NCBI GenBank assembly: GCA_964470965.1
Contig: CAYYIS010000008.1
Coordinates: forward strand, 30,731 to 94,730
Origin: an uncultured Gemmatimonadota bacterium
GTDB lineage: Bacteria; JAAXHH01; JABIQT01
Direction: 5' to 3'
Length of the DNA stretch: 64,000 nt
This document shows positions 5,318-42,707 of this stretch, piece after piece. The translations under genes and the position numbers were made by a program. The notes under the pieces were generated by a model, which saw only the letters and a program-made list of their open reading frames with translations, searched no databases and was not told the origin of the DNA. Every line of letters starts with the position of its first letter. Within the stretch, counting starts at the first letter, position 1.

Positions 5318-5319
5318 GG

Positions 5320-11690: not shown

Positions 11691-11693
11691 GAG

Positions 11694-12452: not shown

Positions 12453-12473
12453 ACCCAGAATCCGGGGACAGCC

Positions 12474-14626: not shown

Positions 14627-14830
14627 TCTGTTGACTTATTCGCTGCAACAAATAGGCGCCCGCGAGCCGATAGCTGCAAACATTTCCGGTCTTGGAATTA
14701 ATCATGATCAAGATTCGTTTTGCCAGCTACTTCTCCCAATTGGCCTTATAATTTACGTCTTGATGATAACGTTGAATAGTATATATTACGGTACAATCAC
14801 AGGCAGATTGCAAATTAGCAAGAGGATTAA

Positions 14831-16207: not shown

Positions 16208-16210
16208 CAT

Positions 16211-22375: not shown

Positions 22376-22380
22376 ACAAG

Positions 22381-24342: not shown

Positions 24343-24813
24343 TTATGCTCCGAGCACGACTTTATCGCCGATTACACTGACACCGAGCCGCACCAGCGGG
24401 ACCGGTGGCGGCCCACCTGTAACCTGTCCCTTTATATCGAAGCGGCCACCGTGACAAGGACAGATAAATTCCTGGTTTTTCTGCACCCATTTCACAGCAC
24501 ACCCCAGATGTGAACATGTCGCCATGAACGCGACAAATCCGTCCGGTCCGTTCACTACCAGCGCCGGTCGACCCCGATAGGTCACAACCTTGGCGGCGCC
24601 GGTCGGCAGTTCGGCCAGATCGATCTCGACCTTGCTGACACCTTTCGCTTCCGGCGGCGGCTCAATGTACCTTATCACAGGATATAGGAAACTCATCAGG
24701 CCCAGGCTGCTTATCAGCCCCATACACCTGGCCAGGAAACGGCGGCGCACTTCATATTTCGTAGGAGAACCTGTGGACGGCATAACGTCGTCCGGCGAAT
24801 TTAGCTGACCCAT
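24343..24813 (-). CDS. Rieske [2Fe-2S] iron-sulfur protein with Tat signal
   Basis: 156 aa. Rieske boxes 'CSHLGCAV' and 'CPCHGGRF'. Twin-arginine motif 'RRRFLARC' near the N-terminus. Confidence 0.85.
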   Translation of the reverse strand: MGQLNSPDDVMPSTGSPTKYEVRRRFLARCMGLISSLGLMSFLYPVIRYIEPPPEAKGVSKVEIDLAELPTGAAKVVTYRGRPALVVNGPDGFVAFMATCSHLGCAVKWVQKNQEFICPCHGGRFDIKGQVTGGPPPVPLVRLGVSVIGDKVVLGA

Positions 24814-26488: not shown

Positions 26489-27541
26489 CTACAGGGCCAC
26501 CTCCCTGCCTTCGTCCTGACTCCTGTAGATACCATCTAGTATGGATAAGACCTGTAGCGATTGTTCAGCCGGAACGGGTGATGGTGCCCCTGAGGCAACG
26601 GCTCTGGCGAATTCCACACATTCCTGCGCGTGAGGCTCAAGTTTGTCCCCGGTTACCTTCAACAATGTATTGTAATGCTGCTTTGTTTCGTAATTCGTCT
26701 TGAGGATTTCGCAGGAAGGCCAGTGGCTGCCTCCATCGGTTCCATATAACCACATTTGCATGTCCTCGCCTTGCGTATCGTGGTGCAGCAACCAGCTTAC
26801 TTCCAGAATGAGTGTCGCCCCGTTTTCAAATCTGATAAACCCCGCCGCCATTTCCTCCACATCCATCTCTTTTGGAATCGCACCACCCCAAATACTGAAC
26901 GCGCCTTCTTTGCGGGCGAGCGTAGTCCGGGCAACACCGCTGCAAGCCACGGGGTTCGGGTTGCCCATCATCCAGAGGGTCAGATCCAGTATATGCACAC
27001 CGATATCGATGCAGGGACCACCGCCACTGTGTTTCTTGAGTACGAATCCGGGAGTTGTGGGGGCCGCAGCCCTCCGCAGCATCCACCCGCGGGCGTGGTA
27101 CACATCACCCAGAGCACCAGCGTCTATCTCCCGTTTGAGTGCCTGGGAATGTCCGTGAAACCTGAAATGCTGTGCGGTCATCAAGCATTTCCCGGAAGCA
27201 TCCCTGGCCGAGATCATATCCCTTATGTCCTCGGGTGTCGGCGCCAGGGGCTTCTCGCAGATTACATGCTTGCCACCGTTCAGAGCGGCGATGGCCAGCG
27301 GCGCGTGGTACATATTGGGCGTACAGATATCGATGATATCGATGTCGGGATCGCTGATGAGTCGCGCCGGGTCCGTAGTCAGGTTGGTGATGCCGTTCTT
27401 CTGTCCCCATGAATTTAGTACGGATTCGTTAACATCACTGCCGGCAATGAGCTCTGCATCCTCAGAGGCAGCCCAACCGGGAAGATGTGTGCCCGCTATA
27501 CCACCAACGCCTATGATGCCTACTTTTAGAGATTCGCCCAT
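26489..27541 (-). CDS. Gfo/Idh/MocA-family oxidoreductase
   Basis: 350 aa. 'LKVGIIGVGGIAGTH' Rossmann motif and 'EKPLAPTPEDIRDM'. Confidence 0.8.
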   Translation of the reverse strand: MGESLKVGIIGVGGIAGTHLPGWAASEDAELIAGSDVNESVLNSWGQKNGITNLTTDPARLISDPDIDIIDICTPNMYHAPLAIAALNGGKHVICEKPLAPTPEDIRDMISARDASGKCLMTAQHFRFHGHSQALKREIDAGALGDVYHARGWMLRRAAAPTTPGFVLKKHSGGGPCIDIGVHILDLTLWMMGNPNPVACSGVARTTLARKEGAFSIWGGAIPKEMDVEEMAAGFIRFENGATLILEVSWLLHHDTQGEDMQMWLYGTDGGSHWPSCEILKTNYETKQHYNTLLKVTGDKLEPHAQECVEFARAVASGAPSPVPAEQSLQVLSILDGIYRSQDEGREVAL

Positions 27542-27569
27542 GGTGCAAATTCCTTTCTGAAGTTTGTTA

Positions 27570-28592
27570 TCATCTCAAACGGATCATTTTACCCTGTTCC
27601 GCACTTTTATAAATGCCTTCCAGGATCTTCATCATTTCTAACCCCTGCTCACCGGTTGACATCGGTTCACGCCCTTCCTGTATGCAGTTCACCAGATGGG
27701 CGATCTCCGCGGCGATACAATCACCCCATGAACGAGGTCTGACCACCGGCGTGATGTCGACCAGTTCCCCATGCAACTCGGTAAAAACGGTGAGTTTGTC
27801 TCCGTGGATTTCCGCACCGCCTTTGGTTCCTATCAGCTTGACGTAGGATTGTTCCTGGGGCACATTTGTGGCCCAGCTCGCTTCCGCGACCAGAGTTGCG
27901 TCGCCATCAAGCTTGATGAATCCTACTGCCAGATCTTCCACATCGTAGTGGCCGCCTTTAACCGTATGGGCAAACTTTGAATAGACGGAGCCCTGAACTG
28001 TGTGTGGTTTGGGATTGCCCATCAACCAGCGTGTCAGGTCGATCATGTGCACGCCCAGGTCGATCAAGGGGCCACCGCCGGACCGTGCCTTGGTGGTAAA
28101 CCAACCTCCCGCTCCGGGGATCCCCCGCCGTCTCAGCCAGCCGGTTTTCGCATAATAGATTTCTCCCAGTTCACCCTGTTCGATCAACTTCTTCAAAATC
28201 TGAGCTTCTGTTCGAAAACGGTTATTGAGAGCAATCATGAGGTATCGTTTATAGCGTTTGGATGCATTGACCATCCGTTGTGCTTCCGCAGCGTTCATGG
28301 CCATGGGCTTCTCGCACAGCACATGGGCACCGGCCTTCAGTGAATCGATCGTCGCCGACGCATGCAGGTAGTTAGGCAGTGCCACACTGACCAGATCCGG
28401 TTCCAGCTTCAGGAGGTCGTGGTAGGAGTCACAGACATTCGGGATCCGATATTGATCGGAGGCTTCCTGTAGACGTTTTCTATCAAGATCCGCCACGCCG
28501 ACAATGTCTACCTGGCTGTTATCCGCATACCCCGCCAGATGATGCCGTCCCAGCCCGAGACCGATAATACCCACATTCAGTTTCCGTTCCAT
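27570..28592 (-). CDS. Gfo/Idh/MocA-family oxidoreductase
   Basis: 340 aa. 'LNVGIIGLGLGRHH' and 'EKPMAMNAAEAQRM'. Confidence 0.8.
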   Translation of the reverse strand: MERKLNVGIIGLGLGRHHLAGYADNSQVDIVGVADLDRKRLQEASDQYRIPNVCDSYHDLLKLEPDLVSVALPNYLHASATIDSLKAGAHVLCEKPMAMNAAEAQRMVNASKRYKRYLMIALNNRFRTEAQILKKLIEQGELGEIYYAKTGWLRRRGIPGAGGWFTTKARSGGGPLIDLGVHMIDLTRWLMGNPKPHTVQGSVYSKFAHTVKGGHYDVEDLAVGFIKLDGDATLVAEASWATNVPQEQSYVKLIGTKGGAEIHGDKLTVFTELHGELVDITPVVRPRSWGDCIAAEIAHLVNCIQEGREPMSTGEQGLEMMKILEGIYKSAEQGKMIRLR

Positions 28593-28781
28593 GGGAACTC
28601 CCTGAGATTGGTTCGTTCTTGATTCCCCTAGGTGTCAACGATTGCTTAGCAAACCTTTGAAAAATCTTCCCTGTTACAACGATCCAATTAAATTTTGATC
28701 CCCAGAATTCGACGCGTACCTATTGGGCAACACACTACGATCCCCGGTCAGACGGGATCGTGAATTGTCGAGGGTTGGCAG

Positions 28782-29828
28782 TTAAAATTCCTTGAAATAC
28801 CTCCGTAAAAACGGCCAGGCGCCATCCTTGTAGTACCGATGACCGCCCTCGCCTATATACATCATACAATCATTTTCGGCACCGGCGATTCTATATATAT
28901 TTTTTAAACGGGCAAAGGCATATTTCACCTGTTCAATCGGAAAAATGGGGTCCGTGCGGCCGGCTATAGCCATAAAAGGCCGGGGGGCTATTAATCCGGC
29001 GACGTCATACATCTCGCCAAAGCGCAGGATACCGGGCACATAGTTGCACTCGCAATGGGAAATCGTGCCTATACTGCCCTCGAAGGTGCAGAAGTAGCTT
29101 CCGGGAATGGCAACGGCTATGCGGGGTTCGCATGCGGCGGTAAACAGAGAGACGGTGCCGCCGCCGGAGTTTCCTGTGATGGCGATACGGTCCGTATCGA
29201 TATGCCCATGCACCGCGGCCCACTCAATCAGGCACTTCATGTCCCACACACGCTCACCGATGGGCGTGCGGCCTGCGAGTAGTCCGTAAACCAGCTGGTC
29301 ACGGCAGGAATTCATTTCCCCATCTTCTTTTGCCTTCGACGTCCTGGTTTCCCCGAATGCCCTTGTGGTGGGAGCGATGGCGACAAAACCCTCGCGGACC
29401 GCCTGGACCGCGATGTCCCTCTCCCCTTCTTCAATATGGGCTGCTTCCTCGTCATCATGGGCAATGCCCACATAAATATGCGGGTGGTTGTGTCCGTGCG
29501 GTATCAGAATCAGAGGCGCTTTGTCGACAAGAGCCTTGGGACGGAGCATGTAGAACGGTAGCGGAACAGTCGGTTCTACCCAGATGTGCCATTCCTCCCT
29601 GGTATAGTCTCCCATGTCGACGGTATGCCTCCTTTCCGCTGTCGGCTGGTGACCCCTGAGATCCATATGGATGTTATCGAGACCGAGGATATTCCTCAGT
29701 CGCGCCCGGAACGCCGTCTGCCAGTGAGAAAATTCTTCCGGTGACTCCGCCTTGAATCGAAATACCGGCTCGAAGGCGTGGTAAGTCGATTTAAAATGTT
29801 CAGATGCATCGTACATAGAAGCCCTCAC
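28782..29828 (-). CDS. Alpha/beta-hydrolase-fold esterase (dienelactone-hydrolase / acetylxylan-esterase-like)
   Basis: 348 aa. Nucleophile elbow 'ITGNSGGG' and downstream acidic/His residues. Sits inside a carbohydrate-catabolism gene string. Confidence 0.55.
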   Translation of the reverse strand: MRASMYDASEHFKSTYHAFEPVFRFKAESPEEFSHWQTAFRARLRNILGLDNIHMDLRGHQPTAERRHTVDMGDYTREEWHIWVEPTVPLPFYMLRPKALVDKAPLILIPHGHNHPHIYVGIAHDDEEAAHIEEGERDIAVQAVREGFVAIAPTTRAFGETRTSKAKEDGEMNSCRDQLVYGLLAGRTPIGERVWDMKCLIEWAAVHGHIDTDRIAITGNSGGGTVSLFTAACEPRIAVAIPGSYFCTFEGSIGTISHCECNYVPGILRFGEMYDVAGLIAPRPFMAIAGRTDPIFPIEQVKYAFARLKNIYRIAGAENDCMMYIGEGGHRYYKDGAWPFLRRYFKEF

Positions 29829-30030
29829 GGGTAATCAGTGGGAACCGCGTCTTCATCAAATCCGTCCGCGGCCTTTCTTGCCGTTCCCTCATTCCGTCCC
29901 TCGGCCAGCGTTTACATCAGGCCTTCAACCGGTCGTGCTGTAAACCCGGCCTGAGATCGCATCGTCTCATTTTCTGTACATCCCGGGAATACTTGGGTTA
30001 GAGCCTGCGTCTCTTGCGGGACACGATGTC

Positions 30031-31305
30031 TCAATAGAGGAGTCCCCTGAAATCCTTAACGGTGTGAAACGTGATTAAATTGCCGTCGTGGGCATCTGCG
30101 GCGCGTTCGTCACCTGATCGGCTCAGAATATGAAGGTCGGCGCCATCGATGACCATACTGGCATAATGCCGTGCCTGACGAGGTGACGGACTGTGAGTCA
30201 CAAGACCAGCGAAACACCAGTCTACCATGTTGGTTGAAAAATGAAGCTGCAACCGGTGACGTTCGTTGTTGGGCAGGTTATAACGTTCCGCGGGCAGCCG
30301 ATCCGCCCGCGTCATACTGTCGGTAGCCTGGGTACTGAGCAGCCAGTAAAGCTGTGTAGGTTCGTCATACAGAACATGAAATTTCATCTGCCCGCCCGGA
30401 CAGGGCACGTACAGTATGGTTTTACCTGAGGGGACGATCTCCAGCATGGTGGTCATGCCGCCGTCCTCCTGTTCTGTTACTTTCGCGATCGCGGCGTAAC
30501 CCGTACCACCTGTGTGGGCACGCATCCAGAGATGGAATGTCTTTCCCATCGGATCAAACCAGTAGTGAGACGGATCGACAAACTGTACCACGTTGGTCTC
30601 AAGCCACCCCATCGGTGCGCATGCCCTGCCTGTTGCCTGCACGGCTCCCTTGGGGTACGGGGCATCGAAAAACGGGACGCCGAAGAAATCGGTCACGGGA
30701 ATAGTCTCCGCCTGCGGCATCACTTCACGGAATGAGAGCTCCGAGGCGAACGTCCAATTGTCCCGTTCGAGAAGATTCTCATCAACACGTCCCCGCATGA
30801 GCACAGGTGCCAGCTCGCCCACATACCAGGTCTCCGTATCGAAGGTCATACGGCGTTCCATGACAAGGTAAACGGAATCGTTTGCAAAATGTACATTGCA
30901 GGGTGCCTGATGCCAGAATTGCCCCTGGGTAAGCGCTACAGGCTCCGACCAGGTTTTGCCGTGATCATCCGAACGCATAATCATCAGGTCTCCCGCATGC
31001 CCCAGAACGTAGACGGCGTCCCCTGCGACAAACGGTCTTGCGTGCATGAAGGGAAAATCAGACCGGTGTTTCCATGTATTCCCGTGGTCGTCCGATGTAA
31101 ACACTTTTCCCTGCCAAGCCCACTGGCGCTCTCCGCTCTCATACTTGGGTCCCGGCATATCTGCCACGGCAGGCCCGCCCAGATCTATAGACGCTATGAG
31201 ACGCCCGTTCCGGCAACGTGCGATTCCGGGACTGTAACAGTGAAGGCCTTCATAGTCGGGGGAGGTGTAAAGAACGGTATATTCTTGAGCCAAAGGACGG
31301 GGCAT
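30031..31305 (-). CDS. BNR/Asp-box repeat glycoside hydrolase, sialidase-like
   Basis: 424 aa. Two clear Asp-box repeats (TSDDHGNTW, RSDDHGKTW). Confidence 0.6.
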   Translation of the reverse strand: MPRPLAQEYTVLYTSPDYEGLHCYSPGIARCRNGRLIASIDLGGPAVADMPGPKYESGERQWAWQGKVFTSDDHGNTWKHRSDFPFMHARPFVAGDAVYVLGHAGDLMIMRSDDHGKTWSEPVALTQGQFWHQAPCNVHFANDSVYLVMERRMTFDTETWYVGELAPVLMRGRVDENLLERDNWTFASELSFREVMPQAETIPVTDFFGVPFFDAPYPKGAVQATGRACAPMGWLETNVVQFVDPSHYWFDPMGKTFHLWMRAHTGGTGYAAIAKVTEQEDGGMTTMLEIVPSGKTILYVPCPGGQMKFHVLYDEPTQLYWLLSTQATDSMTRADRLPAERYNLPNNERHRLQLHFSTNMVDWCFAGLVTHSPSPRQARHYASMVIDGADLHILSRSGDERAADAHDGNLITFHTVKDFRGLLY

Positions 31306-31740
31306 GGACTCTCTTATTTAAAAAGGCCCTTCATACTGGAAGTGCCCAGAGGAAATTGTTAAATTACCGTTGAAATGTGTTTGTGGAATATCTTCCACTC
31401 ATCATTCGATTCTGTCAGGACATACGTGGCAGATGAGGCTTCAGGTTCAGGAATCTTCCCATATGCTTCGTCGGAAAGATCGCCGGTGCACCAAAATGTT
31501 GCTGCACCAATCGAATCGGTCTACGCCCATTCCTTCAAATTCACGCACCTTCAGGTCTCTTCTTGCATTGAAGCACCTGACGTTCCGGCACACCGCAAAA
31601 CTGTGTTCATCGTTCCGGATCGGTACATCCAGGAACGAGAAAAATTTGGGCGAAACGGTTCTTTTCTCGGCCCCACGGTTCCGGGAAGGAATCAGGTTTC
31701 GGTCACGTCTACCACACGCTCGCCCCCCATCCTTCACCTC

Positions 31741-32571
31741 TCATCCTTCCAATGGCTCCTCGTCGTTGAACACCTGCGTCCGCTTCATTACGCGTCGTTC
31801 CGTGTCGGGAAACGGTTCCCGACGGTGCATGGTAGGCCGGTTGTCCCACATGACAAGGTCGCCGACCTGCCAATGATGTGTCCACTCGAATTGAGGCTGC
31901 GACTGATGTGCGATCAGGGTATCGAGTAATTCCCTACTTTCGTTTTCGCTGAGACCGACGACGTATTTGGTCAGATGCGGCCCCACATACAGCGAACTTC
32001 TGCCGGTGTCAGGGTGTGTGCGCACCACAGGATGGTCAACTGGATAAGGCGGGTTCTGTTCCTCCACATAATGACGGTGCACCGCCCGCAAACCCTTCAA
32101 TCGTCTTTTCATCTCATCGTCGAGCGCCTCGTATGCGGCATAGCAGTTACACCACTGGGTGGCGCCGCCGACCATTGGAATCTCAACCGCGTACAGCACC
32201 GATATGGTGCCGGGTTTGGGCATGTATGAGAGGTCTGAATGAAAGCTAATTTCCTCATTGCCGAGGGCACCGATCGGCTCCCCATTCTCCTTCAGGTTGG
32301 AGATAATAAAGATTTCCTTCACACGCCGATCCCGTTGCTTACGGACATGTTGTACAGGCTTACCGAAATAGGAGGTGAATCGCACCTGATCCTCATCGGT
32401 AATCGTCTGATTTCGAAAATAGATCACACAGTGATCCTGCAATGCCTGTCGAACAATATTGACTTCCCGGGAAGAGAGTGGCAAACTCAGATCCAGTCCG
32501 GTTATTTCCACGCCCAGGGCGCCGCCGGTTGGGTGAACCTGCATGTGATCGTGCTTGTTCATGGTTGACAT
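31741..32571 (-). CDS. TauD/TfdA-family Fe(II)/2-oxoglutarate dioxygenase
   Basis: 'WHSDLSYMPKPGTISVLYAVEIP...GGATQWCN' and C-terminal 'MHRREPF' are typical TauD motifs. Start chosen at the ATG preceded by GAGGAG at 6 nt spacing. Confidence 0.7.
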   Translation of the reverse strand: MSTMNKHDHMQVHPTGGALGVEITGLDLSLPLSSREVNIVRQALQDHCVIYFRNQTITDEDQVRFTSYFGKPVQHVRKQRDRRVKEIFIISNLKENGEPIGALGNEEISFHSDLSYMPKPGTISVLYAVEIPMVGGATQWCNCYAAYEALDDEMKRRLKGLRAVHRHYVEEQNPPYPVDHPVVRTHPDTGRSSLYVGPHLTKYVVGLSENESRELLDTLIAHQSQPQFEWTHHWQVGDLVMWDNRPTMHRREPFPDTERRVMKRTQVFNDEEPLEG

Positions 32572-32581
32572 GAACCGCTCC

Positions 32582-33394
32582 TCAACGGTAGGTGAGTTTC
32601 GGTTCCTCACCGAGCATTTTTACACCACTTACCATTATGCTGTTGTTGGATTCATAGGCCGCTTTACCGATCGGACGGGTGGCAGGTGAATGGTATCCGA
32701 TGCGTACGGACTTTCGCCACTGGTCGGTGCGGTTTACATCGGACCAGTGGATCAGGTAATAACTGAAAAAGACGACGTCGCCGGGGTGGGCGGGAACCGC
32801 AACGGTATCCACCTTGTCAGGATGATACGTATCCGGCGGGAGATAGGGCCGGGTATGTTCGCCTGTAATATGTTCGAGGGGCCCTCTGCAATGACTTCCA
32901 GGCACCACCTGAAGGCATCCGCTTTCATGGGGTGTTTCATCCAGGTGTATCAGGCAATCCACGAAATCAGGTCCATCATGGGGGTAAAACGGATAGTCCT
33001 GGTGCATAGGAAACGGCGTACCTTTCTCCGGCGGTTTGGCATGAAGGACCGTGTGATGCCACTGCACATCGTCACCGAGCAGGGCCCGAAGAGATGCTAC
33101 CAGGCCCGGATGGAATATCACACGACTCCACGCGGCGGAATACATATGCGGATTGGATATCAACACAGCCTTTGTCTTATACCGTTCATTCTCCTCCAGA
33201 TAAACATCCCGCCACGGCCCGCGCCATCCGATGCTGTCTTCCCCCCACCATTCCTCGATCAGCCACTTCATCTCTCGGTTGAGTTCATCAACATCGGCAG
33301 GCGGCACCAACCCTTCAACCTTCACATAACCGTCCCGCTGATACAATGCAACCTGCTGCTGCGACAACATGTAATTATGCCTTTTCAGCAACAA
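32582..33394 (-). CDS. Phytanoyl-CoA dioxygenase (PhyH) family oxygenase
   Basis: 270 aa. 'FPMHQDYPFYPHDGPDFVDCLIHLDETPHESGCLQVVPGSH'. An alternative start at 33370 would remove the 20-nt overlap with the upstream gene. Confidence 0.7.
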   Translation of the reverse strand: MLLKRHNYMLSQQQVALYQRDGYVKVEGLVPPADVDELNREMKWLIEEWWGEDSIGWRGPWRDVYLEENERYKTKAVLISNPHMYSAAWSRVIFHPGLVASLRALLGDDVQWHHTVLHAKPPEKGTPFPMHQDYPFYPHDGPDFVDCLIHLDETPHESGCLQVVPGSHCRGPLEHITGEHTRPYLPPDTYHPDKVDTVAVPAHPGDVVFFSYYLIHWSDVNRTDQWRKSVRIGYHSPATRPIGKAAYESNNSIMVSGVKMLGEEPKLTYR

Positions 33395-34151
33395 TTGTAT
33401 TCTTCAACACCCCAATACCGCTGATCTCCACCTCTACATTGTCTCCCGGAGCAACAGGTCCCACTCCCGCGGGTGTTCCGGTATAAATCACATCACCGGG
33501 CAGGAGTGTGATCGCATCTGAGATATATTCGATCAGACGCGCGACCGGAAAAATCAGATCGGAGGTGCTGGTATTCTGACGAACTTCGCCATTGAGCCTG
33601 GTTGTAAGTTCCAGGTCCGTGGGATCAAGATCCGTGGCGATATAGGGGCCCATAGGTTTAAAGGTGTCGAACCCCTTGCCCATCAGCACACATCCCTGGC
33701 TCATCTCCTGGCGCTGTATCACCCGCTCTGAGATGTCATTGCCGCACGTATAACCCAGGACATGGTCAAGTGCATTAGCCGCAGACACATCCTTCGCCTC
33801 TTTGCCGATGACCACGACGAGCTCCCCTTCGTATTCAATATGTTGGCCCTGTAAGGGATACACAACGTCATCGCCCTGACCCACCACCGTAGTCCACGGC
33901 AGCATGAAGAGCATCGGTATGGGCGGCGGCTCTTTGCCGCCTTCCGCAGCGTGGGCTGCATAGTTGAGCCCTACGCCTATCAATCTGGGCCGAGGCACCG
34001 GCGCCAGCACGCGCACATCTGCCAGATTTGTTGTTACCCCGTCGGTTTCGATGCCGTCAAAGGGTGAACCGGCAAGCTGCTGTATGGCCCCGTTCTCTTC
34101 CAATGTACCGTATCGGGTTTCGTTATTGCGCTGATAACGTAAGATTTTCAT
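33375..34151 (-). CDS. Fumarylacetoacetate hydrolase (FAH) family protein (2-keto-4-pentenoate hydratase / oxaloacetate-decarboxylase-like)
   Basis: 258 aa. 'GVGLNYAAHAAE', 'EGELVVVIGK' and 'GDVIYTGTPAGVG' FAH-fold motifs. Confidence 0.75.
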   Translation of the reverse strand: MKILRYQRNNETRYGTLEENGAIQQLAGSPFDGIETDGVTTNLADVRVLAPVPRPRLIGVGLNYAAHAAEGGKEPPPIPMLFMLPWTTVVGQGDDVVYPLQGQHIEYEGELVVVIGKEAKDVSAANALDHVLGYTCGNDISERVIQRQEMSQGCVLMGKGFDTFKPMGPYIATDLDPTDLELTTRLNGEVRQNTSTSDLIFPVARLIEYISDAITLLPGDVIYTGTPAGVGPVAPGDNVEVEISGIGVLKNTIVAEKA

Positions 34152-34279
34152 GGGTAAACTCCTTAATTAATACTGCCTCTCCGTCGCAAACAAAAGTCAC
34201 TATGGGCCTGTTGGCGCTTTACGAATTGCTGTTTCCAATCAGTCGAAAATATCGCCACTTCGATCCGGATGACATTGAG

Positions 34280-35191
34280 TTAAGATACAAACTCTTTATA
34301 TCGATCGTCAATTCCGGCCGTTCCTGCGTCACCGTCGTGTAACACAATACGGATGGTCTGATCCGTATGGTCATTCGGGGAAATCGAAGACCCTCTTGTT
34401 CCGAAGGGATTGATGGTCATCGTGCCGTAATCAGCGACCTGCCATGGATAGGGATCTACGTCCGGCGGCTGAAAAACAGCAATACCCGCCGTATGACCCG
34501 GTATGACCGGCCCCGAACAATCGATCCATCCGGCCTTTTTCCCGGTGATCTCTGCAGCCCCAGTCCGCCCTTTAGCATCCGAATAAACTGCACCCTGACT
34601 ACTGCGCAGCGTCTCGACCATTCGGACACCAAAGTAGGCATGTCGCGCCGGCCCTATAGTCAAGTCCCACTCCGTGGCCATAAGCCGGGAGCTGACATCT
34701 ATTACGTGAGCCATCCTGTCCGGATAAATATCGATGGTGCGCAATTCATGAGCCAGTACACGCCCATCCGGCGCCGCCCATTCGGGAGGTCCCTGCCAGT
34801 GAAGTTTCTGCCGCAATCGAAGGTGGGTATCAGATACGATGTTATGATCGATTGCCACGGAAACGATTCGCCCCGGCGCCCTTCCCTGGAACGTCTCATT
34901 TACATAAAAGTTATATACGGCATCTTCAAATGAGTCAACCGAAAACGGCAGTCGGCAATGTACACGATCCGCAGCCACCCAGATGGCATTGTGATGGGGG
35001 TGGTCCGGCGGTGATTCCGCTGTGAGAGCAAATCCCGCCGGCGAATAGACGGGGTGCAAATATGACCGAAACGCGCCTTGGGTAAGAGACACCACTGATC
35101 GGCCATTCCACGTAATGTTCAGGCGATGGCCTTTTGCACATGCGCCTCGCGGCAGATCAAAGATATCTGGAGTGATGTTGAATGCGGTCAT
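34280..35191 (-). CDS. PmoA-like (DUF6807) family protein, function unknown
   Basis: 303 aa. This family commonly co-occurs with Gfo/Idh/MocA oxidoreductases. Called from overall resemblance and gene context only. Confidence 0.35.
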   Translation of the reverse strand: MTAFNITPDIFDLPRGACAKGHRLNITWNGRSVVSLTQGAFRSYLHPVYSPAGFALTAESPPDHPHHNAIWVAADRVHCRLPFSVDSFEDAVYNFYVNETFQGRAPGRIVSVAIDHNIVSDTHLRLRQKLHWQGPPEWAAPDGRVLAHELRTIDIYPDRMAHVIDVSSRLMATEWDLTIGPARHAYFGVRMVETLRSSQGAVYSDAKGRTGAAEITGKKAGWIDCSGPVIPGHTAGIAVFQPPDVDPYPWQVADYGTMTINPFGTRGSSISPNDHTDQTIRIVLHDGDAGTAGIDDRYKEFVS

Positions 35192-35194
35192 ATG

Positions 35195-36217
35195 TTAGAC
35201 TATATCCACTGGCTGACCATTTGTACCCGATTCATAGGCCGCACGTACGATTCCCAGGACGTGGCGAGCAGCACGGGGTTGTACCGGCACCTCGGTCTGA
35301 TTTACTATAGCATCGATAAATGTACACAACAACGCAGGAAAGCCCGCTTCGTCGTGACCTTCCGGTTCGACGTCCACCAGAGACCAGACGCCCGATTCCT
35401 CCTGCCAGACAGATACCTGCAGTTCACCACCGAGTCGGATCTGACCACGCGTTCCGTAAATCTCCTCGACCCGAACACCTCCTCCTGGTGCGCACCAGCC
35501 TACCTGTACGGAAGATGTCGCACCGTTCTCATGTTCAATTAACAACAGAGCGGTGTCTTCCACGTCGATGTCCTGCACGTATCTCCCGATACGGGCGTAT
35601 ACACGCTTCGCAGGGGATTGAAGATGATCGACCGCGCAGTAAATCTGGTGGTAGCCGTTATCGATCAGCGGTCCGCCGCCACCGGCAGAGGCAGATGTTC
35701 GCCAGTGTTGATCCACACCCCGACCTACCACATGCCGGGAGCTGAACCCTTCATTACGGATGAGAAAAATATCACCTATACTTCCGTCAGATACACAACC
35801 GGCGATCGCACGATGCACCGGTCTGAACAACTGGTTATGGCTGACCGTCAGACGTCGGCCGGTTTCTTCCGAAACTGCTATGATACGATCAGCTTCTTCC
35901 ACAGATGTGGCAATCGGCTTCTCAACCAGTACATCGGTCCCCGCCTGCATCGACGCGATAGCCTGTGATTCATGCAAGTGGTGAGGTGTACAGATATGAA
36001 CCAGATCCAGGGATTCCTTCTCCAACATGGACTCGTAATCGCTATAACGATGTGCCTGCGGGACTCCGTATTGATCGCCGATCAAGGCAAGCCGGTCCTC
36101 CGATACATCGGAAATAGCTGATACGACCACACGATCATTAAGGCCTGACAACACAGGAAGGTGACGTCGTTCGGCGATTCCGCCACATCCGATGACACCG
36201 ACCCGGAGCATTGTCAA
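35195..36217 (-). CDS. Gfo/Idh/MocA-family oxidoreductase
   Basis: 340 aa. 'LRVGVIGCGGIAERRH' and 'EKPIATSVEEADRI'. The start overlaps the upstream stop (ATGA). Confidence 0.8.
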   Translation of the reverse strand: MTMLRVGVIGCGGIAERRHLPVLSGLNDRVVVSAISDVSEDRLALIGDQYGVPQAHRYSDYESMLEKESLDLVHICTPHHLHESQAIASMQAGTDVLVEKPIATSVEEADRIIAVSEETGRRLTVSHNQLFRPVHRAIAGCVSDGSIGDIFLIRNEGFSSRHVVGRGVDQHWRTSASAGGGGPLIDNGYHQIYCAVDHLQSPAKRVYARIGRYVQDIDVEDTALLLIEHENGATSSVQVGWCAPGGGVRVEEIYGTRGQIRLGGELQVSVWQEESGVWSLVDVEPEGHDEAGFPALLCTFIDAIVNQTEVPVQPRAARHVLGIVRAAYESGTNGQPVDIV

Positions 36218-37059
36218 TCCCTTCCTACGCCTGCCGAAATAAAAGCGTGCTGGAGCGATTCATATGAAATTTCTGCAGCCTTGACACAATCGTAATCGGC
36301 GCGCCCCCAGACGCGGGCGCTTACCTCCAGTGTTATGTAACCGTTCCATCCCCCTTGTTGCATGGCCTTGACATATTCAGTGGCATCCAGATCACCATCA
36401 CCCAAAAGCAGTAGATCGAAGGAACCGTCCGGGTGTTTTCGGGCATCTGTGATGTGGGTATGGGCGGTGATCGGCAGGAGACGGCGTACCGCTTCGGATT
36501 CGTTTTCACCGGAGAGGTAAAAATGTACGATATCGAAATGCAGACGGGCACAGGGACTGTCCACGGCATTAATCAACCATAACGCACGGTCCGATCGGTC
36601 GACAGAGGCGCCGCAGTGGGCCTCACCTGCCAGGACGAATCCTTCTTGGACCCCCAGCGCGGCAAAATCTCTGAACCGGGACACCACACGACCCCGCACA
36701 TAATCCCACTGGTCGGTTTTGCCTCCGATCCCCATGGCGAGCACAGGCGCATCTGCCATTCCGAGATCCCGGGCAAGCTGGATCGTTCGGCGGGTGTGTT
36801 CCAGATTTCGTTGATGTTCGCTATCGTCTTCGTGAAAGATTTGCCCTGTCATGAACAGCGCGGGGATGCCCATGCCATGTTCCCTCAGCATATCCCGAAT
36901 TCTCTTCCTGCGTTCCGAATTAATTTCGGCCGGCATGGAGCCTATGTGCCTGGGGCTGAGACAGATCTCGATACCGTCGTAGCCAATCTCCGCCAGCAAT
37001 GGAATCACGTCCTCCAACGGTGATTCGGGCATGGCATAGGTACCAAAAGCAATTTTCAT
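36214..37059 (-). CDS. Sugar phosphate isomerase/epimerase (xylose isomerase-like TIM barrel)
   Basis: 281 aa. 'GYDGIEICL' and 'HTHITDA' motifs of the AP-endonuclease-2 / xylose-isomerase-like TIM barrel. Confidence 0.7.
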   Translation of the reverse strand: MKIAFGTYAMPESPLEDVIPLLAEIGYDGIEICLSPRHIGSMPAEINSERRKRIRDMLREHGMGIPALFMTGQIFHEDDSEHQRNLEHTRRTIQLARDLGMADAPVLAMGIGGKTDQWDYVRGRVVSRFRDFAALGVQEGFVLAGEAHCGASVDRSDRALWLINAVDSPCARLHFDIVHFYLSGENESEAVRRLLPITAHTHITDARKHPDGSFDLLLLGDGDLDATEYVKAMQQGGWNGYITLEVSARVWGRADYDCVKAAEISYESLQHAFISAGVGRD

Positions 37060-38066
37060 GCAGCGGCCGCCTCCGCCTTTGCACGATCTACATGCGCCTT
37101 CATGTAGGCGATGGAATAAGCGGTTCCTACACGGCCATCCTCCGTCATCGAAGGGATGTGATCCGGAATCAACACACCGTCGAAATCGACTTCCTGGAGA
37201 ACCTTGGTGGCGTTGTACATGTCAAAATACCCGTTGTCTATGAATGTCTCAATGAAATGCGGTAACGGCTGGTCCACATTGCGGTAGTGGATTTTGAACA
37301 GTTTTCCCCGTTCTCCGAAATACCGCAGAGACTCTTCCACACCTTTCCCCATGAGAGGACCGCCTTCAAGCCAGCAACCGATACAGAAGCAGATCCCTAC
37401 GTTCGGACTGTCCGCTATATCCATGGCCCGGGCGTATCCTTCATAGCTGCTGAAAATGCATCGGGGCACTCCTCCCAATTCTGGCTGGGGAGGATCATCG
37501 GGGTGGATACCTATGCGGACACCAGCTTCCTCTGCCACCGGTGCTGCTTGTTTGATGAAATATGTATAGTTCGCCCATATCTCATCTTCGCTGTAGTTCC
37601 GGCCATGGGTAAGGGGCATATTGAATATGCGGCCGCCCCAGTGTCCTTCTGTCGCATTCGCCAGATCGAACCCTCGAGCGCTTGCGCCGCCGCGCGTTGT
37701 CTCACGATCGGTGCTCCAGATACCGTTCCCCATATGGGCATAAGTTGTGTACGGGATACCGGCCTTGCCGAGATCACGGATATAACGTTTGTACTGTTCA
37801 ACTTTATCATCCCTGTTGGAAAGGTTCAGCACGATTCCGTCCTGGTTATGCACATCACTGTTACCGAAACCGTAGATCTTAATGCCCGCGTTCTCGTAGA
37901 TTTCCCGTGAGCGCATGAAATAATCGTAGTTGGCATTTATGCCGTCAGTCCACAGGCAAACGTATTCGATGCCCATCTGCTGTGCGAACTGCAGATCTTC
38001 CGGGGTTGGCTCTGGCGACATCTGACCGGCAACTTTCATTCCGGGTTCTAAAGACATGAGGGACAT
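37056..38066 (-). CDS. uxuA: Mannonate dehydratase
   Basis: 336 aa. 'FIKQAAPVAEEAGVRIGIHPDDPPQP' and 'IPDHIPSM' align with E. coli UxuA ([23 protein letters not shown] ... IPMRPDHGHQM). Confidence 0.75.
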   Translation of the reverse strand: MSLMSLEPGMKVAGQMSPEPTPEDLQFAQQMGIEYVCLWTDGINANYDYFMRSREIYENAGIKIYGFGNSDVHNQDGIVLNLSNRDDKVEQYKRYIRDLGKAGIPYTTYAHMGNGIWSTDRETTRGGASARGFDLANATEGHWGGRIFNMPLTHGRNYSEDEIWANYTYFIKQAAPVAEEAGVRIGIHPDDPPQPELGGVPRCIFSSYEGYARAMDIADSPNVGICFCIGCWLEGGPLMGKGVEESLRYFGERGKLFKIHYRNVDQPLPHFIETFIDNGYFDMYNATKVLQEVDFDGVLIPDHIPSMTEDGRVGTAYSIAYMKAHVDRAKAEAAAA

Positions 38067-38089
38067 AGTGAAATCTCCATTTTTTGAGG

Positions 38090-39460
38090 TTAAAACGTGG
38101 CTAACCGATTAAGAAGTCTACCATAAGCTGTCAGTCCGCGCCTGAAGCTTCTTATTCTGAAATATTCATTGGGGGCGTGAATATTTTCATCTTCCAGGCA
38201 GAACCCGAACATCACGGTATATACACCAAGGGTGTTCAGGAAAAGGGTGCAGATCGGAAGGCTCCCCCCGAGTCTCACGTAATAGGGATCTTTGCCGTAC
38301 ACTCCTTTTAAAACATCATGCGCTGCCCGGTTGCCGGGATGGTCGCCCGCCATTGAATATGGATATGCATGGCTTGACAACCGCCGAACCGTGGCGGAAA
38401 CCCCCGCCGGCGTATGAGAGGCTATATGCTGCTCGATGGCATCCATTACCTGTTCCGGGGTCTGATCGGCTACGAGCCGACACGTAATTTTAGCATGCGC
38501 CTCCGACGGCAGCACTGCCTTGACGCCATCACCCTGAAAGCCGCCCCAGATCCCGTTAATCTCAAGTGTGGGCCGCGCCCAAGCCCGTTCATAGGTCGTG
38601 TAATCCGCTTCTCCGTAAACATCATCAATACCGACCTGCGCTTTATAGTGTGTCTCATCGTACGGTACGGCAGCGATCTGACTTCTGTCTTCATCAGATA
38701 AAGGTTGGACGTTTTCATAAAATCCGTCTACCGCGATGCGCCCGTCCTTGCTTCGCATGGTGTCAAGCACGTGTACCAGAGCATGCAATGGATTTTGTAC
38801 GGCGCCACCGAAAATACCGGAATGCAGGTCACTATCCGGACCTTTCAGATCGATCTGAAGCGCACAGATACCTTTGAACCCTAGGAATAAAGCGGGTTGA
38901 TCCTCCCGCCACTGCAGTCCATCCGCACTGATCACGAGGTCACAGGTCAGAAGTTCTTTATGCTTTTCAATAAACTGAGGAATCTGAGGGCTGCCTATTT
39001 CCTCCTGGCCTTCGAACATAAAGACCACGTTCACCGGCAACACCCCTTCGGAATTGAGAAGCGCCTCTACCGCCAGAATTGGGATCAGCATATTGCCCTT
39101 GTCGTCAGAAGCGCCGCGGGCGAAAATACATTCATTCTTAATAACAGGCTCGAACGGCGGTTGATCCCATGCGTCGGACGGATCCGCCGGTTGTGTATCG
39201 AAATGGCCGTAGATGAGGATCGTCGGCTTGTCACCCGCATGCTTCCATTCACCTACCACCACCGGATGTCCGCCTGTAGGCAGAATGCTTACCTCCTCGA
39301 TGCCTGCTCTTTCCATACGGGCTGCCACCCATACGGCAGCTCTCTGGATATCATCCGCGTGTTCCGGCAGACTCGACACGCTCGGGATCCGTAGAAAATC
39401 CATCAATTCGTCGATATATTGTGTGTGATGTTCCCGGAGATAGGTTTCCCAGGCAGACAT
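38090..39460 (-). CDS. M20-family metallopeptidase (dipeptidase / ArgE-DapE-CPG2-like)
   Basis: 456 aa. 'GHFDTQP', 'ARGASDDKG' and 'EGQEEIGS' metal-binding motifs. Confidence 0.8.
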   Translation of the reverse strand: MSAWETYLREHHTQYIDELMDFLRIPSVSSLPEHADDIQRAAVWVAARMERAGIEEVSILPTGGHPVVVGEWKHAGDKPTILIYGHFDTQPADPSDAWDQPPFEPVIKNECIFARGASDDKGNMLIPILAVEALLNSEGVLPVNVVFMFEGQEEIGSPQIPQFIEKHKELLTCDLVISADGLQWREDQPALFLGFKGICALQIDLKGPDSDLHSGIFGGAVQNPLHALVHVLDTMRSKDGRIAVDGFYENVQPLSDEDRSQIAAVPYDETHYKAQVGIDDVYGEADYTTYERAWARPTLEINGIWGGFQGDGVKAVLPSEAHAKITCRLVADQTPEQVMDAIEQHIASHTPAGVSATVRRLSSHAYPYSMAGDHPGNRAAHDVLKGVYGKDPYYVRLGGSLPICTLFLNTLGVYTVMFGFCLEDENIHAPNEYFRIRSFRRGLTAYGRLLNRLATF

Positions 39461-39636
39461 GGTAAGGCTCCTCGAATTATGATCAGAACATGATGGGATG
39501 AATACCGGATGTCAAGCGGGATTTTGGGTATTGCTGGGCGAATATCTATCCAGGGTTGACGTTCCGTCCGGTTCAGTTATATTCTGTTCACAATTTATCC
39601 CTTCCGGCAAGCCCACACACAACTCGGAGGCCCTCG

Positions 39637-40482
39637 GTGAAACTTGCATTCTATAACAATTATACACTTGGTGTCATAGATGACGGAAACATCATGGATG
39701 CATCTGCCGCCGTCTCCGATATCACGCCATGCAACCCGCAGGCGTTGCTGGAAACGGTCATCGGAAACTGGGATACCTACGGTGCGCGTATCGCGGATGC
39801 GACACAGGGACAGAGTGGTGTATCGCTCGATAGCGTGACACTGGGCCCGCCGGTTCCACGACCGGGGCAGCTGGTCTGCCTGGCCGGTAATTTTATCGAA
39901 CCTGCAGTACCGAACAGAGGAAATTTCAATGCATTCCTTAAATCAAATACTTCGGTAATGGGCCAGAATGCCGTCGTCGAGCTGCCTGCGGCTGAGGCAA
40001 CCGTTTTCCACTTCGAACCTGAACTGGCGATCGTGATCGGCAGACGGGCAAGTAAGTTGTCCGCCGATGAAGCGCTGGACCATGTGTTCGGGTATGTGCA
40101 GTTCCTCGACGTTTCAGCCAGAGGATTGCCGGGGGGGTTCTTCCTGGGCAAAAGCTGGCATACCTTCGGGCCCATGGGACCGGCGCTGGTGACCGCCGAC
40201 GAGGTAGGCGACGCCAACCAGTTATCGGCAAAGATGTGGGTCAACGACACTTTGAAGCACGATTTCAACACCAACCAGATGGCCCGTTACATTCCCGAAC
40301 TTCTGGCAGAAGTAACTAACGTACTGACACTGGAACCTGGCGATGTGGTACCTACCGGAACGCACCACCACGCTCTTTCGCCTATCCAGAATGGTGACAG
40401 TATAACATTCGATGTAGAAAAATTGGGGCCCGCTCTGACGCTTACTGTAAAAGACGAGCAGGGAAGGACCTGGGAACGGTAG
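39637..40482 (+). CDS. Fumarylacetoacetate hydrolase (FAH) family protein
   Basis: 'FEPELAIVIGRRA' and 'GDVVPTGT' FAH motifs. GTG start at 39637 with a GGAGG Shine-Dalgarno 6 nt upstream; the longer ATG-initiated ORF from 39556 has no RBS. Confidence 0.7.
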   Translation: MKLAFYNNYTLGVIDDGNIMDASAAVSDITPCNPQALLETVIGNWDTYGARIADATQGQSGVSLDSVTLGPPVPRPGQLVCLAGNFIEPAVPNRGNFNAFLKSNTSVMGQNAVVELPAAEATVFHFEPELAIVIGRRASKLSADEALDHVFGYVQFLDVSARGLPGGFFLGKSWHTFGPMGPALVTADEVGDANQLSAKMWVNDTLKHDFNTNQMARYIPELLAEVTNVLTLEPGDVVPTGTHHHALSPIQNGDSITFDVEKLGPALTLTVKDEQGRTWER

Positions 40483-40483
40483 G

Positions 40484-41593
40484 TTAGAACAGGATCCTAT
40501 AAAAATCAGGATAGAACTGCTCCTCGACGAACGATCGGATATCGAGCCCGCCACTCAGGCCACTGGGCTGTACGAAGAATAGCGGATAAATTCGGGTATC
40601 AAGTGCATAAGGATCCACACGTCCGTTGGGGGAGTCCAGGTAGGACACTACAACATAATCCCCAAAATCCGGCAGCTGCATCAGTTGTATAGCGCCCGCT
40701 TTCATACCCAGATCAGAAAGCAGATGTTCAGCCTCCATACGCCCGGAGGCGATTTGCATCAGCAGCGAGATACCGGGCGCCTGTTCCAGGCCGTTCTGAA
40801 CCGCCTCAGTCATAAGGATCGCCTGCATAGTGCCTATGATCTGGTCGTTTTCACGGGGCGCAAATGATATGGCAGTCACATTCGGGGATTCCCAGTGCAC
40901 CGCATACAATTGTGTTGTCGCCTCCTGACGCAACAGAAACGCTAGACCGATACTCACGAGGGACAAGAGGAACCAGGCCGCCAGCGCCCTGGTGCGCCGC
41001 GGTGGTTTCCAGCCCCGCGCGCGGGCAGGCGAACGGAACGGGTTGAACATCGAAATCCGCGCCATATAGCGCTCACTGTCCTTACCGTATTTTCCTCGAA
41101 TCACTTCCTCTTCATGCCGCGCCAGCAGGTAATAAAGACCAAGCATCATCAGAAACGTCAACAGCACGAAGAAGCGAGGCCACATCAGCAGAAATCCCAG
41201 TCCGGAGATCGATAGGCAGAGATACTGTGGATGACGGACCCGGGCATACAACCCGCTGTTCACCAAAAGCCTTTTAACGAATTTCCCATAGTAGAGCTGT
41301 ACCGCACATGCCAGAAACCCCAGGAGTCCGATTCCGGCAAGCGGCGGTCCCAGATACGAGAGAGCGAGGAACAGTTGGTTTTTCGATTGGGCCAGGTGGG
41401 GTAAAAAAAACTGTGGTAGCCATGCAGTAGATTCAAAAAGAGTAAATGCGTGGATGATCGGCGTATACACGCTGTAAAAATACGCCGCGAACGGTGTCAC
41501 CATGATGATGACTTCAAGCGCACTCACAACATAGATGAGGATAGCAGGCAACCAGTGCCACTGAAAATGGTCGGAGGTGGGATTTTTCTTCAT
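40484..41593 (-). CDS. Isoprenylcysteine carboxyl methyltransferase (ICMT/PEMT) family membrane methyltransferase with a C-terminal extension
   Basis: 369 aa. 'VNSGLYARVRHPQYL' is the ICMT/PEMT SAM-binding signature. Multiple TM helices. Confidence 0.6.
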   Translation of the reverse strand: MKKNPTSDHFQWHWLPAILIYVVSALEVIIMVTPFAAYFYSVYTPIIHAFTLFESTAWLPQFFLPHLAQSKNQLFLALSYLGPPLAGIGLLGFLACAVQLYYGKFVKRLLVNSGLYARVRHPQYLCLSISGLGFLLMWPRFFVLLTFLMMLGLYYLLARHEEEVIRGKYGKDSERYMARISMFNPFRSPARARGWKPPRRTRALAAWFLLSLVSIGLAFLLRQEATTQLYAVHWESPNVTAISFAPRENDQIIGTMQAILMTEAVQNGLEQAPGISLLMQIASGRMEAEHLLSDLGMKAGAIQLMQLPDFGDYVVVSYLDSPNGRVDPYALDTRIYPLFFVQPSGLSGGLDIRSFVEEQFYPDFYRILF

Positions 41594-41601
41594 TGGGCCT
41601 G

Positions 41602-42570: not shown

Positions 42571-42707
42571 GTGACCTCTGGTATCTTAATAGGAATTTGA
42601 TTCCGAAATCGATGACTACTATAGAGGCATGCCCTCCAGGGGTCAAGAGAAAAGCGGACTTCTACAGTAATAGAAATCTTTGAGTCGAGGCACCTTGAAT
42701 CTTTACC

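Follow-up and report, generated by a model that had tools for sequence, protein, structure and literature searches.

We analysed a 13-kb string of 12 consecutive open reading frames (ORFs) that run head to tail on the minus strand from position 39460 to position 26489 of a 64,000-nucleotide stretch (hereafter the window) of contig CAYYIS010000008.1, assembly GCA_964470965.1 of an uncultured Gemmatimonadota bacterium. An earlier interpretation made from the letters alone (the sequence-only reading) had assigned the whole string to a single pathway for an acidic or unusual sugar. Our comparisons lead us to favour, with moderate confidence, the explanation that the string is a lineage-specific mosaic of small catabolic modules lying on one strand, with an oxidative sugar-acid core, and not a single conserved pathway. 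When comparative synteny was examined, the genes separated outside one close relative; the one-pathway proposal is thus unsupported, because its genes do not travel together beyond a relative that also keeps unrelated flanking genes. By orthologue comparison, the sole unit with cross-lineage support is a DUF6807 gene followed by an FAH gene, sometimes joined by a xylose-isomerase-like TIM-barrel (XI-TIM) or a Gfo/Idh/MocA (Gfo) gene. The modules would be an M20 peptidase, the closely packed core (UxuA-like, XI-TIM, Gfo, DUF6807 and FAH), a PhyH and TauD oxygenase pair, a BNR protein, an esterase and a terminal Gfo pair.

Pfam domains were assigned to all window ORFs of 110 aa or more. They reproduced in exact order the 12 minus-strand genes and the families that the sequence-only reading had named: M20, UxuA with AP_endonuc_2, AP_endonuc_2, Gfo/Idh/MocA, DUF6807, FAA_hydrolase, PhyH, TauD, a weak BNR, Abhydrolase_7 and Gfo/Idh/MocA twice. 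The features are as follows.

38090..39460, minus strand: M20 dipeptidase, 456 aa, first gene of the run (Pfam Peptidase_M20 and M20_dimer; NCBIfam PRK08201)
37056..38066, minus strand: UxuA-superfamily TIM barrel, 336 aa, putative sugar-acid dehydratase (Pfam UxuA and AP_endonuc_2)
36214..37059, minus strand: XI-TIM, 281 aa, putative isomerase, epimerase, dehydratase or lyase (AP_endonuc_2)
35195..36211, minus strand: Gfo/Idh/MocA NAD(P) oxidoreductase, 338 aa from ATG 36211 (Pfam; gene call on the source scaffold)
34280..35191, minus strand: DUF6807 ('PmoA family') protein, 303 aa (PF14100)
33375..34151, minus strand: FAH1, 258 aa, Rv2993c/HpcE-like, putative diketo-acid hydrolase, decarboxylase or isomerase (FAA_hydrolase and Rv2993c-like_N)
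32582..33370, minus strand: PhyH-family Fe(II)/2-oxoglutarate oxygenase, 262 aa (Pfam PhyH, 118.9 bits)
31741..32571, minus strand: TauD/TfdA-family Fe(II)/2-oxoglutarate dioxygenase, 276 aa (Pfam TauD, 234 bits)
31306..31740, no strand: non-coding gap of 435 bp between the TauD and BNR genes, where relatives hold an APH-family kinase gene
30031..31305, minus strand: BNR/Asp-box six-bladed propeller protein (predicted), 424 aa (sub-threshold Pfam BNR)
28782..29816, minus strand: alpha/beta hydrolase, 344 aa as called, carbohydrate-esterase-like (Abhydrolase_7)
27570..28592, minus strand: Gfo/Idh/MocA protein, 340 aa, first of the terminal pair (Pfam; NCBIfam below cut-off)
26489..27541, minus strand: Gfo/Idh/MocA protein, 350 aa, last of the run and followed by a convergent TPR gene (Pfam; NCBIfam below cut-off)
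39637..40482, plus strand: FAH2, 281 aa, divergent (FAA_hydrolase, 149.8 bits)

The complete string was found solely in a close relative (contigs L004 and L167), with protein identities of 59-88%; the nearest relative carrying it is labelled Candidatus Latescibacteria (GCA_018667995.1). The members of this cluster derive from marine metagenomes, and the window itself is 99.9% identical to ENA scaffold SUTE22-1_SAMN10231917 scaffold_96. As judged from the contigs compared, the mosaic is so far known in this marine Latescibacteria-like lineage only. The two contigs also retain unrelated flanks, namely a PEMT-like gene and FAH2 (69% identical in L004) on one side and TPR, Rieske and cytochrome b genes on the other. 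Since unrelated flanks persist too at such a distance, synteny with this relative is uninformative on function. The relative also carries insertions within the string. An APH-family kinase gene lies between the TauD and BNR genes (L004 9007-9978; L167 6345-7301, where it is split into two ORFs), and a tyrosine integrase gene, of which the window has no detectable remnant, separates the esterase from the Gfo pair (L004 12513-13409; L167 9838-10734). When the 435-bp gap of the window was compared with L004 and L167 (tblastn, tblastx and blastn), flanking-gene ends alone matched and no remnant of the kinase was found.

Outside this relative, the BNR protein keeps different company. We fetched 80 loci of its orthologues with flanks of up to 10 kb per side and searched them by tblastn with every string protein at E<1e-8. 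None contained a match to TauD, PhyH, FAH, DUF6807, XI-TIM or M20, and the sole string matches were Gfo paralogues of about 26% identity at nine loci. The recurring neighbours were DHDPS-family lyases (17-20 of the 80 loci), sulfatases (13 loci), FAD oxidoreductases, SSF symporters, sugar ABC transporters and other BNR_2 proteins; the DHDPS proteins failed the NanA cut-offs. In Paenibacillus and Cohnella, an operon comprises a DHDPS-family lyase, an ABC solute-binding protein, two permeases and the BNR protein, with an FGGY kinase and a GH42 gene, or a large Laminin_G_3/BNR_2 protein, on its 3' side. The identity of 64-70% over the 80 loci in distant phyla is an unusually high cross-phylum conservation. 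The family proteins have about 420-430 aa and share 63-70% identity across Chloroflexota, Planctomycetota, Verrucomicrobiota, Kiritimatiellia, Lentisphaerae and Paenibacillus, and relatives were confirmed in at least 553 stretches of a species-genome collection (553 of 600 matched), including Chloroflexota and cultivated Paenibacillus and Cohnella. The best homologues of the string protein are 63-78% identical (65-78% among 28 aligned), and their labels include KSB1, Verrucomicrobiota, Pirellulales, Kiritimatiellia and Poribacteria.

This protein had been described as a sialidase-like hydrolase, which holds for its predicted fold but not at the level of Pfam membership. It missed all Pfam gathering cut-offs (BNR_2 23.9 versus 31.4 bits), its single NCBIfam match reached 19.6 bits versus a cut-off of 175, and a PDB profile search matched the Asp-box region alone (E 9e-6). 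Two SxDxGxTW boxes are present at residues 71-78 and 112-119. An AlphaFold2 model built with 29 homologues (predicted local distance difference test (pLDDT) score 70.5, medium quality, with residues 190-350 weak) is a beta-propeller, and the top 21 Foldseek matches were all GH33 sialidases or trans-sialidases, as were nearly all of the top 50. The best match had an E value of 1.6e-11, probability 1.0 and a TM-score of about 0.5, with about 12% identity to solved sialidases. The modelled fold is therefore that of a six-bladed Asp-box sialidase. In the sequence alignment, the invariant positions include R90, R262, R349, R351, Y381, E236 and D114. Because of the sialidase fold of the model and the lyase and transporter partners of the family elsewhere, the BNR protein most likely acts on the glycoside of a 2-keto-3-deoxy acid sugar. 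In L014 (7773-11348) and eight other Verrucomicrobia-type loci, BNR orthologues adjoin an FG-GAP-repeat protein of about 1100 aa, the N-terminal 400 or so residues of which look, by eye, related to the BNR family. A Paenibacillus sialidase described in a preprint (PMC12934896) was considered as a family member and rejected, as it is a secreted enzyme of 917 aa versus 405 aa for the BNR family; it might correspond to the Laminin_G_3/BNR_2 gene of 787-945 aa that lies next to some Paenibacillus BNR loci.

The DUF6807 protein was used as a second anchor, with 80 metagenome loci of 43-55% identity, 69 of which had enough sequence for neighbour counts. At 17 of the 69 loci, the next gene downstream on the same strand is an FAH orthologue (51-68% identity), and at 21 such an orthologue is adjacent in any orientation. 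XI-TIM and Gfo genes occur at nine and ten loci, respectively, a few of them clearly orthologous (55-58%): XI-TIM orthologues of 55-58% identity adjoin DUF6807 in L087 and L090, and a 58% orthologue of the first Gfo protein (35195..36211) does so in L103. TauD, BNR and M20 were found at none of these loci and PhyH once, at 24% identity. The other recurring neighbours are TRAP transporter genes, which fit an acidic substrate, SDR genes and esterases. A seemingly split XI-TIM gene in L002 was considered as a pseudogene and rejected, the split being a run of N in the assembly.

A profile check confirmed the DUF6807 assignment, and a structure model gives the protein a carbohydrate-enzyme fold. 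The protein scored 150.6 bits against PF14100 (gathering cut-off 27) over profile positions 3-268 of 270, and its AlphaFold model (pLDDT 87.9) is a galactose-mutarotase-like beta-sandwich with Bacillus subtilis GalM as the best Foldseek match. The fold is mutarotase, PL26 or GH174-like; a DHPHH motif is invariant throughout the family, as are numerous Trp, Arg and Glu residues. No sequence relatives were found in the PDB, and the searchable literature yielded no functional study on DUF6807, PF14100 or 'PmoA family protein'. The protein is a putative carbohydrate-active enzyme. Together, this model and that of the BNR protein support a carbohydrate-related character of the locus at the level of predicted folds.

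For the two oxygenases, a role in removing a substituent from the sugar had been suggested. This was not borne out at orthologue loci, where TauD and PhyH appear to have no conserved link to sugar genes. Contigs with Latescibacterota, Poribacteria, Gemmatimonadetes and Binatia labels hold TauD orthologues of 64-76% identity, and none of these contigs carries an orthologue of FAH, DUF6807 or BNR. A context of cysS, an MlrC-like peptidase, XI-TIM, TauD and a zinc alcohol dehydrogenase is shared by three contigs (four loci, two of them nearly identical) with Gemmatimonadetes or Latescibacterota labels and TauD 68-72% identical (L172 5719-9802; L174 5643-8813; L175 7747-11793). In L175, several PhyH genes and an HpcH aldolase gene lie upstream of this context. 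Another TauD contig holds M19 peptidase, DLH esterase, TauD, RhaM-like and amidohydrolase genes, and one has no related neighbours at all; across this set of contexts the TauD proteins are 68-73% identical to ours. Our TauD protein is a member of the TauD/TfdA superfamily but falls below the taurine dioxygenase cut-off (PRK09553, 185.5 versus 313), is about equally similar to the TfdA, TauD and AtsK structures, and has no tauABC-type linkage, as the string contains no ABC transporter. The PhyH protein has only remote PDB and NCBIfam matches, and no PhyH orthologue near DUF6807, BNR or TauD was found in other lineages at the examined loci. In sponge microbiomes, GH33-like and esterase genes are reported to have moved laterally between Latescibacterota, Poribacteria and Chloroflexota (PMC8163846); the identity that the BNR and TauD proteins show across phyla would be in keeping with such transfer.

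The gene content of the window also bears on how the co-localisation is to be read. No other same-strand run in the window is as long as the 12-gene string; eight plainly unrelated genes also follow one another on the plus strand (9183-17299). Its 64 kb contain three PhyH, four Gfo and two FAH genes, and it also holds a GH29 fucosidase gene and several amidase, peptidase and esterase genes. With paralogues so dense and an unrelated 8-gene run in the same window, family-level co-localisation is expected in this genome. GC content is uniform across the window (0.51-0.56), so there is no sign of a recently acquired island. In SAR202 group I marine oligotrophs, paralogue families lie in scattered small clusters, for which non-phosphorylating oxidation of rare sugars and sugar acids has been proposed (PMC10444878). 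The window is like SAR202 group I in its paralogue density but belongs to another phylum, and its expanded families are Gfo, PhyH, TauD, XI-TIM and DUF6807, where SAR202 has enolase, SDR and COG3618.

Within the string, the spacing of genes is uneven. Many ATGA start/stop overlaps had been described; the one at 37056-37059, between the UxuA-like and XI-TIM genes, is real and is the sole one in the string, whereas 36214-36217 reads TTGA, so 'many' was an overstatement. The first Gfo gene likely starts at ATG 36211, 2 bases past the stop of the upstream gene. Besides the overlap there are six short spacers of 2-28 bp, which, together with it, define three tight groups, namely M20 to DUF6807, FAH to TauD, and the terminal Gfo pair. 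Four gaps are wider: 128 bp between DUF6807 and FAH (34152-34279), 435 bp between TauD and BNR (31306-31740), about 214 bp between BNR and the esterase (29817-30030) and 189 bp between the esterase and the Gfo pair (28593-28781). Sigma-70 promoter-like and terminator-like sites showed no enrichment over shuffled sequence, the Bacteroidetes-type TAnnTTTG was not found in the string gaps, and an Rfam scan of the whole window, including the 435-bp gap, gave no family at gathering score. The divergent second FAH gene starts, as had been noted, at a GTG (39637) preceded by GGAGG (39626-39630), and this start agrees with a 281-aa gene call on the source scaffold. On the source scaffolds, a 184-aa plus-strand ORF without a Pfam record is predicted at 31375-31929, antisense to the 3' end of the TauD gene and the 435-bp gap; it is probably spurious.

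Several observations weigh against the mosaic explanation. The PhyH gene lies 4 bp after FAH1 and 10 bp before TauD, and with such spacers the three genes are probably co-transcribed. In L004 and L167, all spacers from the UxuA-like gene to the esterase gene are at most about 45 bp, and the arrangement looks like a single operon of 10-11 genes. A Poribacteria contig (L168, 6700-10288) has XI-TIM, PhyH, DUF6807 and a 340-aa BNR_2/BNR_3 protein in a row. Moreover, the flanks compared were at most 10 kb, many metagenome loci were short, and crude ORF calling lay behind the neighbour clustering. The mechanism proposed below for the core rests on analogy, because the canonical enzymes of the analogous pathway come from other families. 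As for L168, its DUF6807 protein is 58% identical to that of the window, the XI-TIM and PhyH proteins are 25-27% identical and the BNR protein has no detectable match; we rejected this contig as cross-phylum support, as the likeness is one of families, represented by different subfamilies, and not of orthologues.

The proteins of the core are assigned with different confidence. The first TIM barrel had been named a UxuA mannonate dehydratase. Its UxuA superfamily membership stands (Pfam UxuA, 133.5 bits, passed, with the best stretch at profile positions 173-331 of 352, and AP_endonuc_2 in addition), but the protein fell short of both mannonate dehydratase models (TIGR00695 uxuA, 78 versus 199.55; PRK03906/NF003027, 107.6 versus 191). 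Its nearest solved structure is 3ban, a mannonate dehydratase (102 bits), and the protein is best regarded as a putative sugar-acid dehydratase, not a bona fide mannonate dehydratase. XI-TIM matched AP_endonuc_2 at 107.8 bits and otherwise showed only weak NCBIfam and PDB matches (IolE, UlaE and AsbF). For all three Gfo proteins of the string, every named NCBIfam dehydrogenase model was far below its cut-off. FAH1 and FAH2 are members of the FAH superfamily by Pfam. FAH1 scored below the cut-offs of HpaG-C (199.9 versus 276) and of L-2,4-diketo-3-deoxyrhamnonate hydrolase (NF053535, 175.7 versus 500), and FAH2 reached 105.6 against the latter, with the same cut-off of 500. The PDB matches of FAH1 were 3rr6, 1gtt and 8gsr; with 140 bits for 8gsr (LRA6) versus 229-232 for the HpcE-like entries, it is nearest to HpcE/HpaG/Rv2993c-type enzymes.

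From these assignments, the core may be proposed to carry out, in the cytoplasm, the oxidation of a sugar or sugar acid by a non-phosphorylative route, with the substrate and every catalytic step drawn by analogy. The mutarotase-fold DUF6807 protein would bind or interconvert the sugar, the Gfo protein would oxidise it with NAD(P), the two TIM-barrel enzymes would dehydrate or isomerise the product to a 2-keto-3-deoxy or 2,4-diketo acid, and FAH would cleave a C-C bond to give pyruvate and a smaller acid. The BNR and TauD proteins, each in different company elsewhere, may feed or trim core substrates here. No obvious signal peptide was seen by eye in any of the 12 string proteins, which fits cytoplasmic catabolism. 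This scheme with FAH is modelled on route 3 for the breakdown of L-fucose and L-rhamnose, in which a mutarotase, a 1-dehydrogenase, a lactonase, a dehydratase, a 4-dehydrogenase and an FAH diketo-acid hydrolase yield pyruvate and a hydroxy acid (PMC11199699). The same precedent makes sense of the oxidation, dehydration and FAH cleavage put forward in the sequence-only reading. Like route 3 (FucM/A/B/C/F/G; LRA1-3, LRA5 and LRA6), the string has a mutarotase-fold protein, dehydrogenases, a hydrolase, a dehydratase-like TIM barrel and an FAH, and a GH29 fucosidase gene lies 10 kb away. In contrast to route 3, the FAH alone belongs to the canonical family, and even it falls short of the LRA6 equivalog cut-off (175.7 versus 500); the dehydrogenases are Gfo/Idh/MocA and not SDR proteins, and the dehydratase is UxuA-like rather than of the enolase or IlvD type. 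By Pfam, the string has no RhaM/FucU, SDR, COG3618 amidohydrolase lactonase or enolase-superfamily dehydratase. By analogy, the string may work like route 3 without being a member of it.

The string also departs from the textbook hexuronate and sialic-acid (Nan) loci, as the sequence-only reading had recognised. Like the hexuronate (Ashwell) pathway, it has a UxuA-superfamily TIM-barrel protein, but this protein fails both mannonate dehydratase models, and no homologues of UxaC, UxuB, KdgK or KDPG aldolase (Eda/KdgA) were found among the Pfam assignments of window ORFs. Like Nan clusters, it has a BNR protein with a predicted sialidase fold and Asp-boxes, the orthologues of which elsewhere sit with DHDPS lyases, SSF symporters or sugar ABC transporters and other BNR_2 proteins. 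In contrast to Nan clusters, this BNR protein has about 12% identity to solved sialidases, is sub-threshold for BNR_2 and is apparently cytoplasmic (no signal peptide by eye), and a DHDPS lyase, NanK, NanE and a transporter were not found in the window. The substrate class named earlier, nonulosonic or uronic, is a guess.

The remaining modules are peripheral to the core. The M20 protein passed the PRK08201 'dipeptidase' cut-off (581 bits versus 441), the sole equivalog cut-off passed in the string, which marks it as a generic peptidase rather than a sugar enzyme; it is probably a housekeeping dipeptidase outside any sugar pathway. The assignment of the alpha/beta hydrolase as an esterase held up: it matched Abhydrolase_7 (53.4 bits) and GCE_fung (28.2 bits), and its nearest PDB entries, 3g8y (SusD/RagB-associated esterase-like) and 3nuz (putative acetyl xylan esterase), are akin to esterases associated with polysaccharide utilization loci (PULs). 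The terminal Gfo pair, whose second gene starts 28 bp after the first, is set off from the esterase gene by 189 bp in the window and by the integrase gene in L004 and L167.

The proposal that the entire 13-kb string is a dedicated pathway for a decorated acidic (nonulosonic, ulosonic or uronic) sugar, proceeding through de-esterification, sialidase-like cleavage, removal of substituents by TauD and PhyH, oxidation, dehydration and FAH cleavage, is unlikely in our assessment. It draws on the operon-like packing in L004/L167, the sialidase fold of the BNR protein, the association of that family elsewhere with DHDPS-type lyases and sugar transporters (an indication of a 2-keto-3-deoxy acid sugar), the TRAP (carboxylate) transporters near DUF6807 orthologues, the PUL-like esterase and the cytoplasmic location, judged by eye, of all string proteins. 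However, BNR, TauD and PhyH lack orthologue-level co-occurrence with the core outside the lineage, gaps of 128-435 bp interrupt the string in the window, and a kinase and an integrase gene interrupt it in relatives. In addition, the M20 protein is a generic dipeptidase, and Pfam assignments revealed no transporter, regulator, kinase or lyase/aldolase in the string.

Gfo/Idh/MocA and XI-like TIM-barrel families are linked to the cleavage of 3-keto-glycosides. An arrangement like LgdA/LgdB for levoglucosan, BT2157-2159 of Bacteroides or DgpA/B/C for C-glycosides, in which a Gfo protein oxidises C3 of a glycoside, an XI-like TIM barrel eliminates the aglycone and further Gfo proteins reduce the keto sugar, would make the FAH and oxygenase genes unrelated neighbours. 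The string shares with those systems the combination of the two families, with three Gfo proteins and two XI-like TIM barrels, and among the top NCBIfam names of its Gfo proteins are levoglucosan dehydrogenase, UDP-GlcNAc 3-dehydrogenase and glycoside/disaccharide 3-dehydrogenase, all far below cut-off. This arrangement nevertheless seems improbable. The Gfo scores are 36-147 bits versus cut-offs of 450-750 (36-115 versus 650-750 for the 3-dehydrogenase equivalogs BT_2158, BT_2159 and LgdA), and the second TIM barrel is UxuA-like. Unlike in those systems, to which both proteins are foreign, the conserved pair here is FAH and DUF6807, and FAH has no role in 3-keto-glycoside cleavage.

It is quite improbable that FAH, PhyH and TauD, possibly with M20, act on a small molecule that is not a carbohydrate, perhaps a sulfonate, a modified peptide or amino acid, or an alicyclic acid of marine dissolved organic matter, the sugar-like genes being mere neighbours. 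In its favour, TauD orthologues elsewhere adjoin peptidases (MlrC and M19), alcohol dehydrogenases and several PhyH genes, FAH1 is nearest to HpcE-/Rv2993c-type enzymes of aromatic-acid pathways, and an M20 dipeptidase heads the string. On the other hand, TauD is under the taurine dioxygenase cut-off, DUF6807, the conserved neighbour of FAH1, has a carbohydrate-enzyme fold, and XI-like TIM barrels accompany TauD in other contexts too. Finally, it is very improbable that the genes from UxuA-like to esterase form one operon for degrading, in the cytoplasm, an imported glycoside of a 2-keto-3-deoxy (ulosonic, sialic-acid-like) sugar, in which a Gfo-type 4-dehydrogenase and an FAH diketo-acid hydrolase would replace the usual DHDPS/NanA-type lyase, a replacement that parallels the branch point between aldolase and dehydrogenase-hydrolase in fucose and rhamnose catabolism, and TauD and PhyH would strip a substituent, for instance a sulfate ester or methyl ether, from the sugar.

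Other genes of the window were also recorded. A PhyH gene (13850-14626) lies directly upstream of the GH29 alpha-L-fucosidase gene (14831-16207) on the plus strand, a further adjacency of an oxygenase and a glycosidase, and the third PhyH gene (5284-6108) adjoins an amidase gene. Beyond the end of the string, a minus-strand cluster encodes a Rieske protein (24343-24813), cytochrome b (23184-24338) and a multihaem c-type cytochrome (22381-23178), followed by a protein of about 900 aa with a PIG-L deacetylase domain (19715-22462); this cluster is kept in relatives. Beyond FAH2, the region 40484-46174 encodes an amidase of the FmdA/AmdA type, an aldehyde dehydrogenase, a DUF6785/DUF6784 protein of 677 aa and a 369-aa membrane protein whose methyltransferase domain is PEMT/ICMT-like.

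As a claim about a pathway, the string carries little weight; read as a mosaic, it joins the many arrangements, each specific to a lineage, in which uncultured marine heterotrophs combine catabolic families rich in paralogues. Were the ulosonic-operon reading true, it would give first functions to DUF6807 and to the highly conserved cytoplasmic BNR family. The useful leads are the DUF6807-FAH pair and the BNR family; the latter is without a characterised member and open to tests in Paenibacillus that can be cultivated. If activities could be assigned to either of them, thousands of environmental genes would be better annotated.

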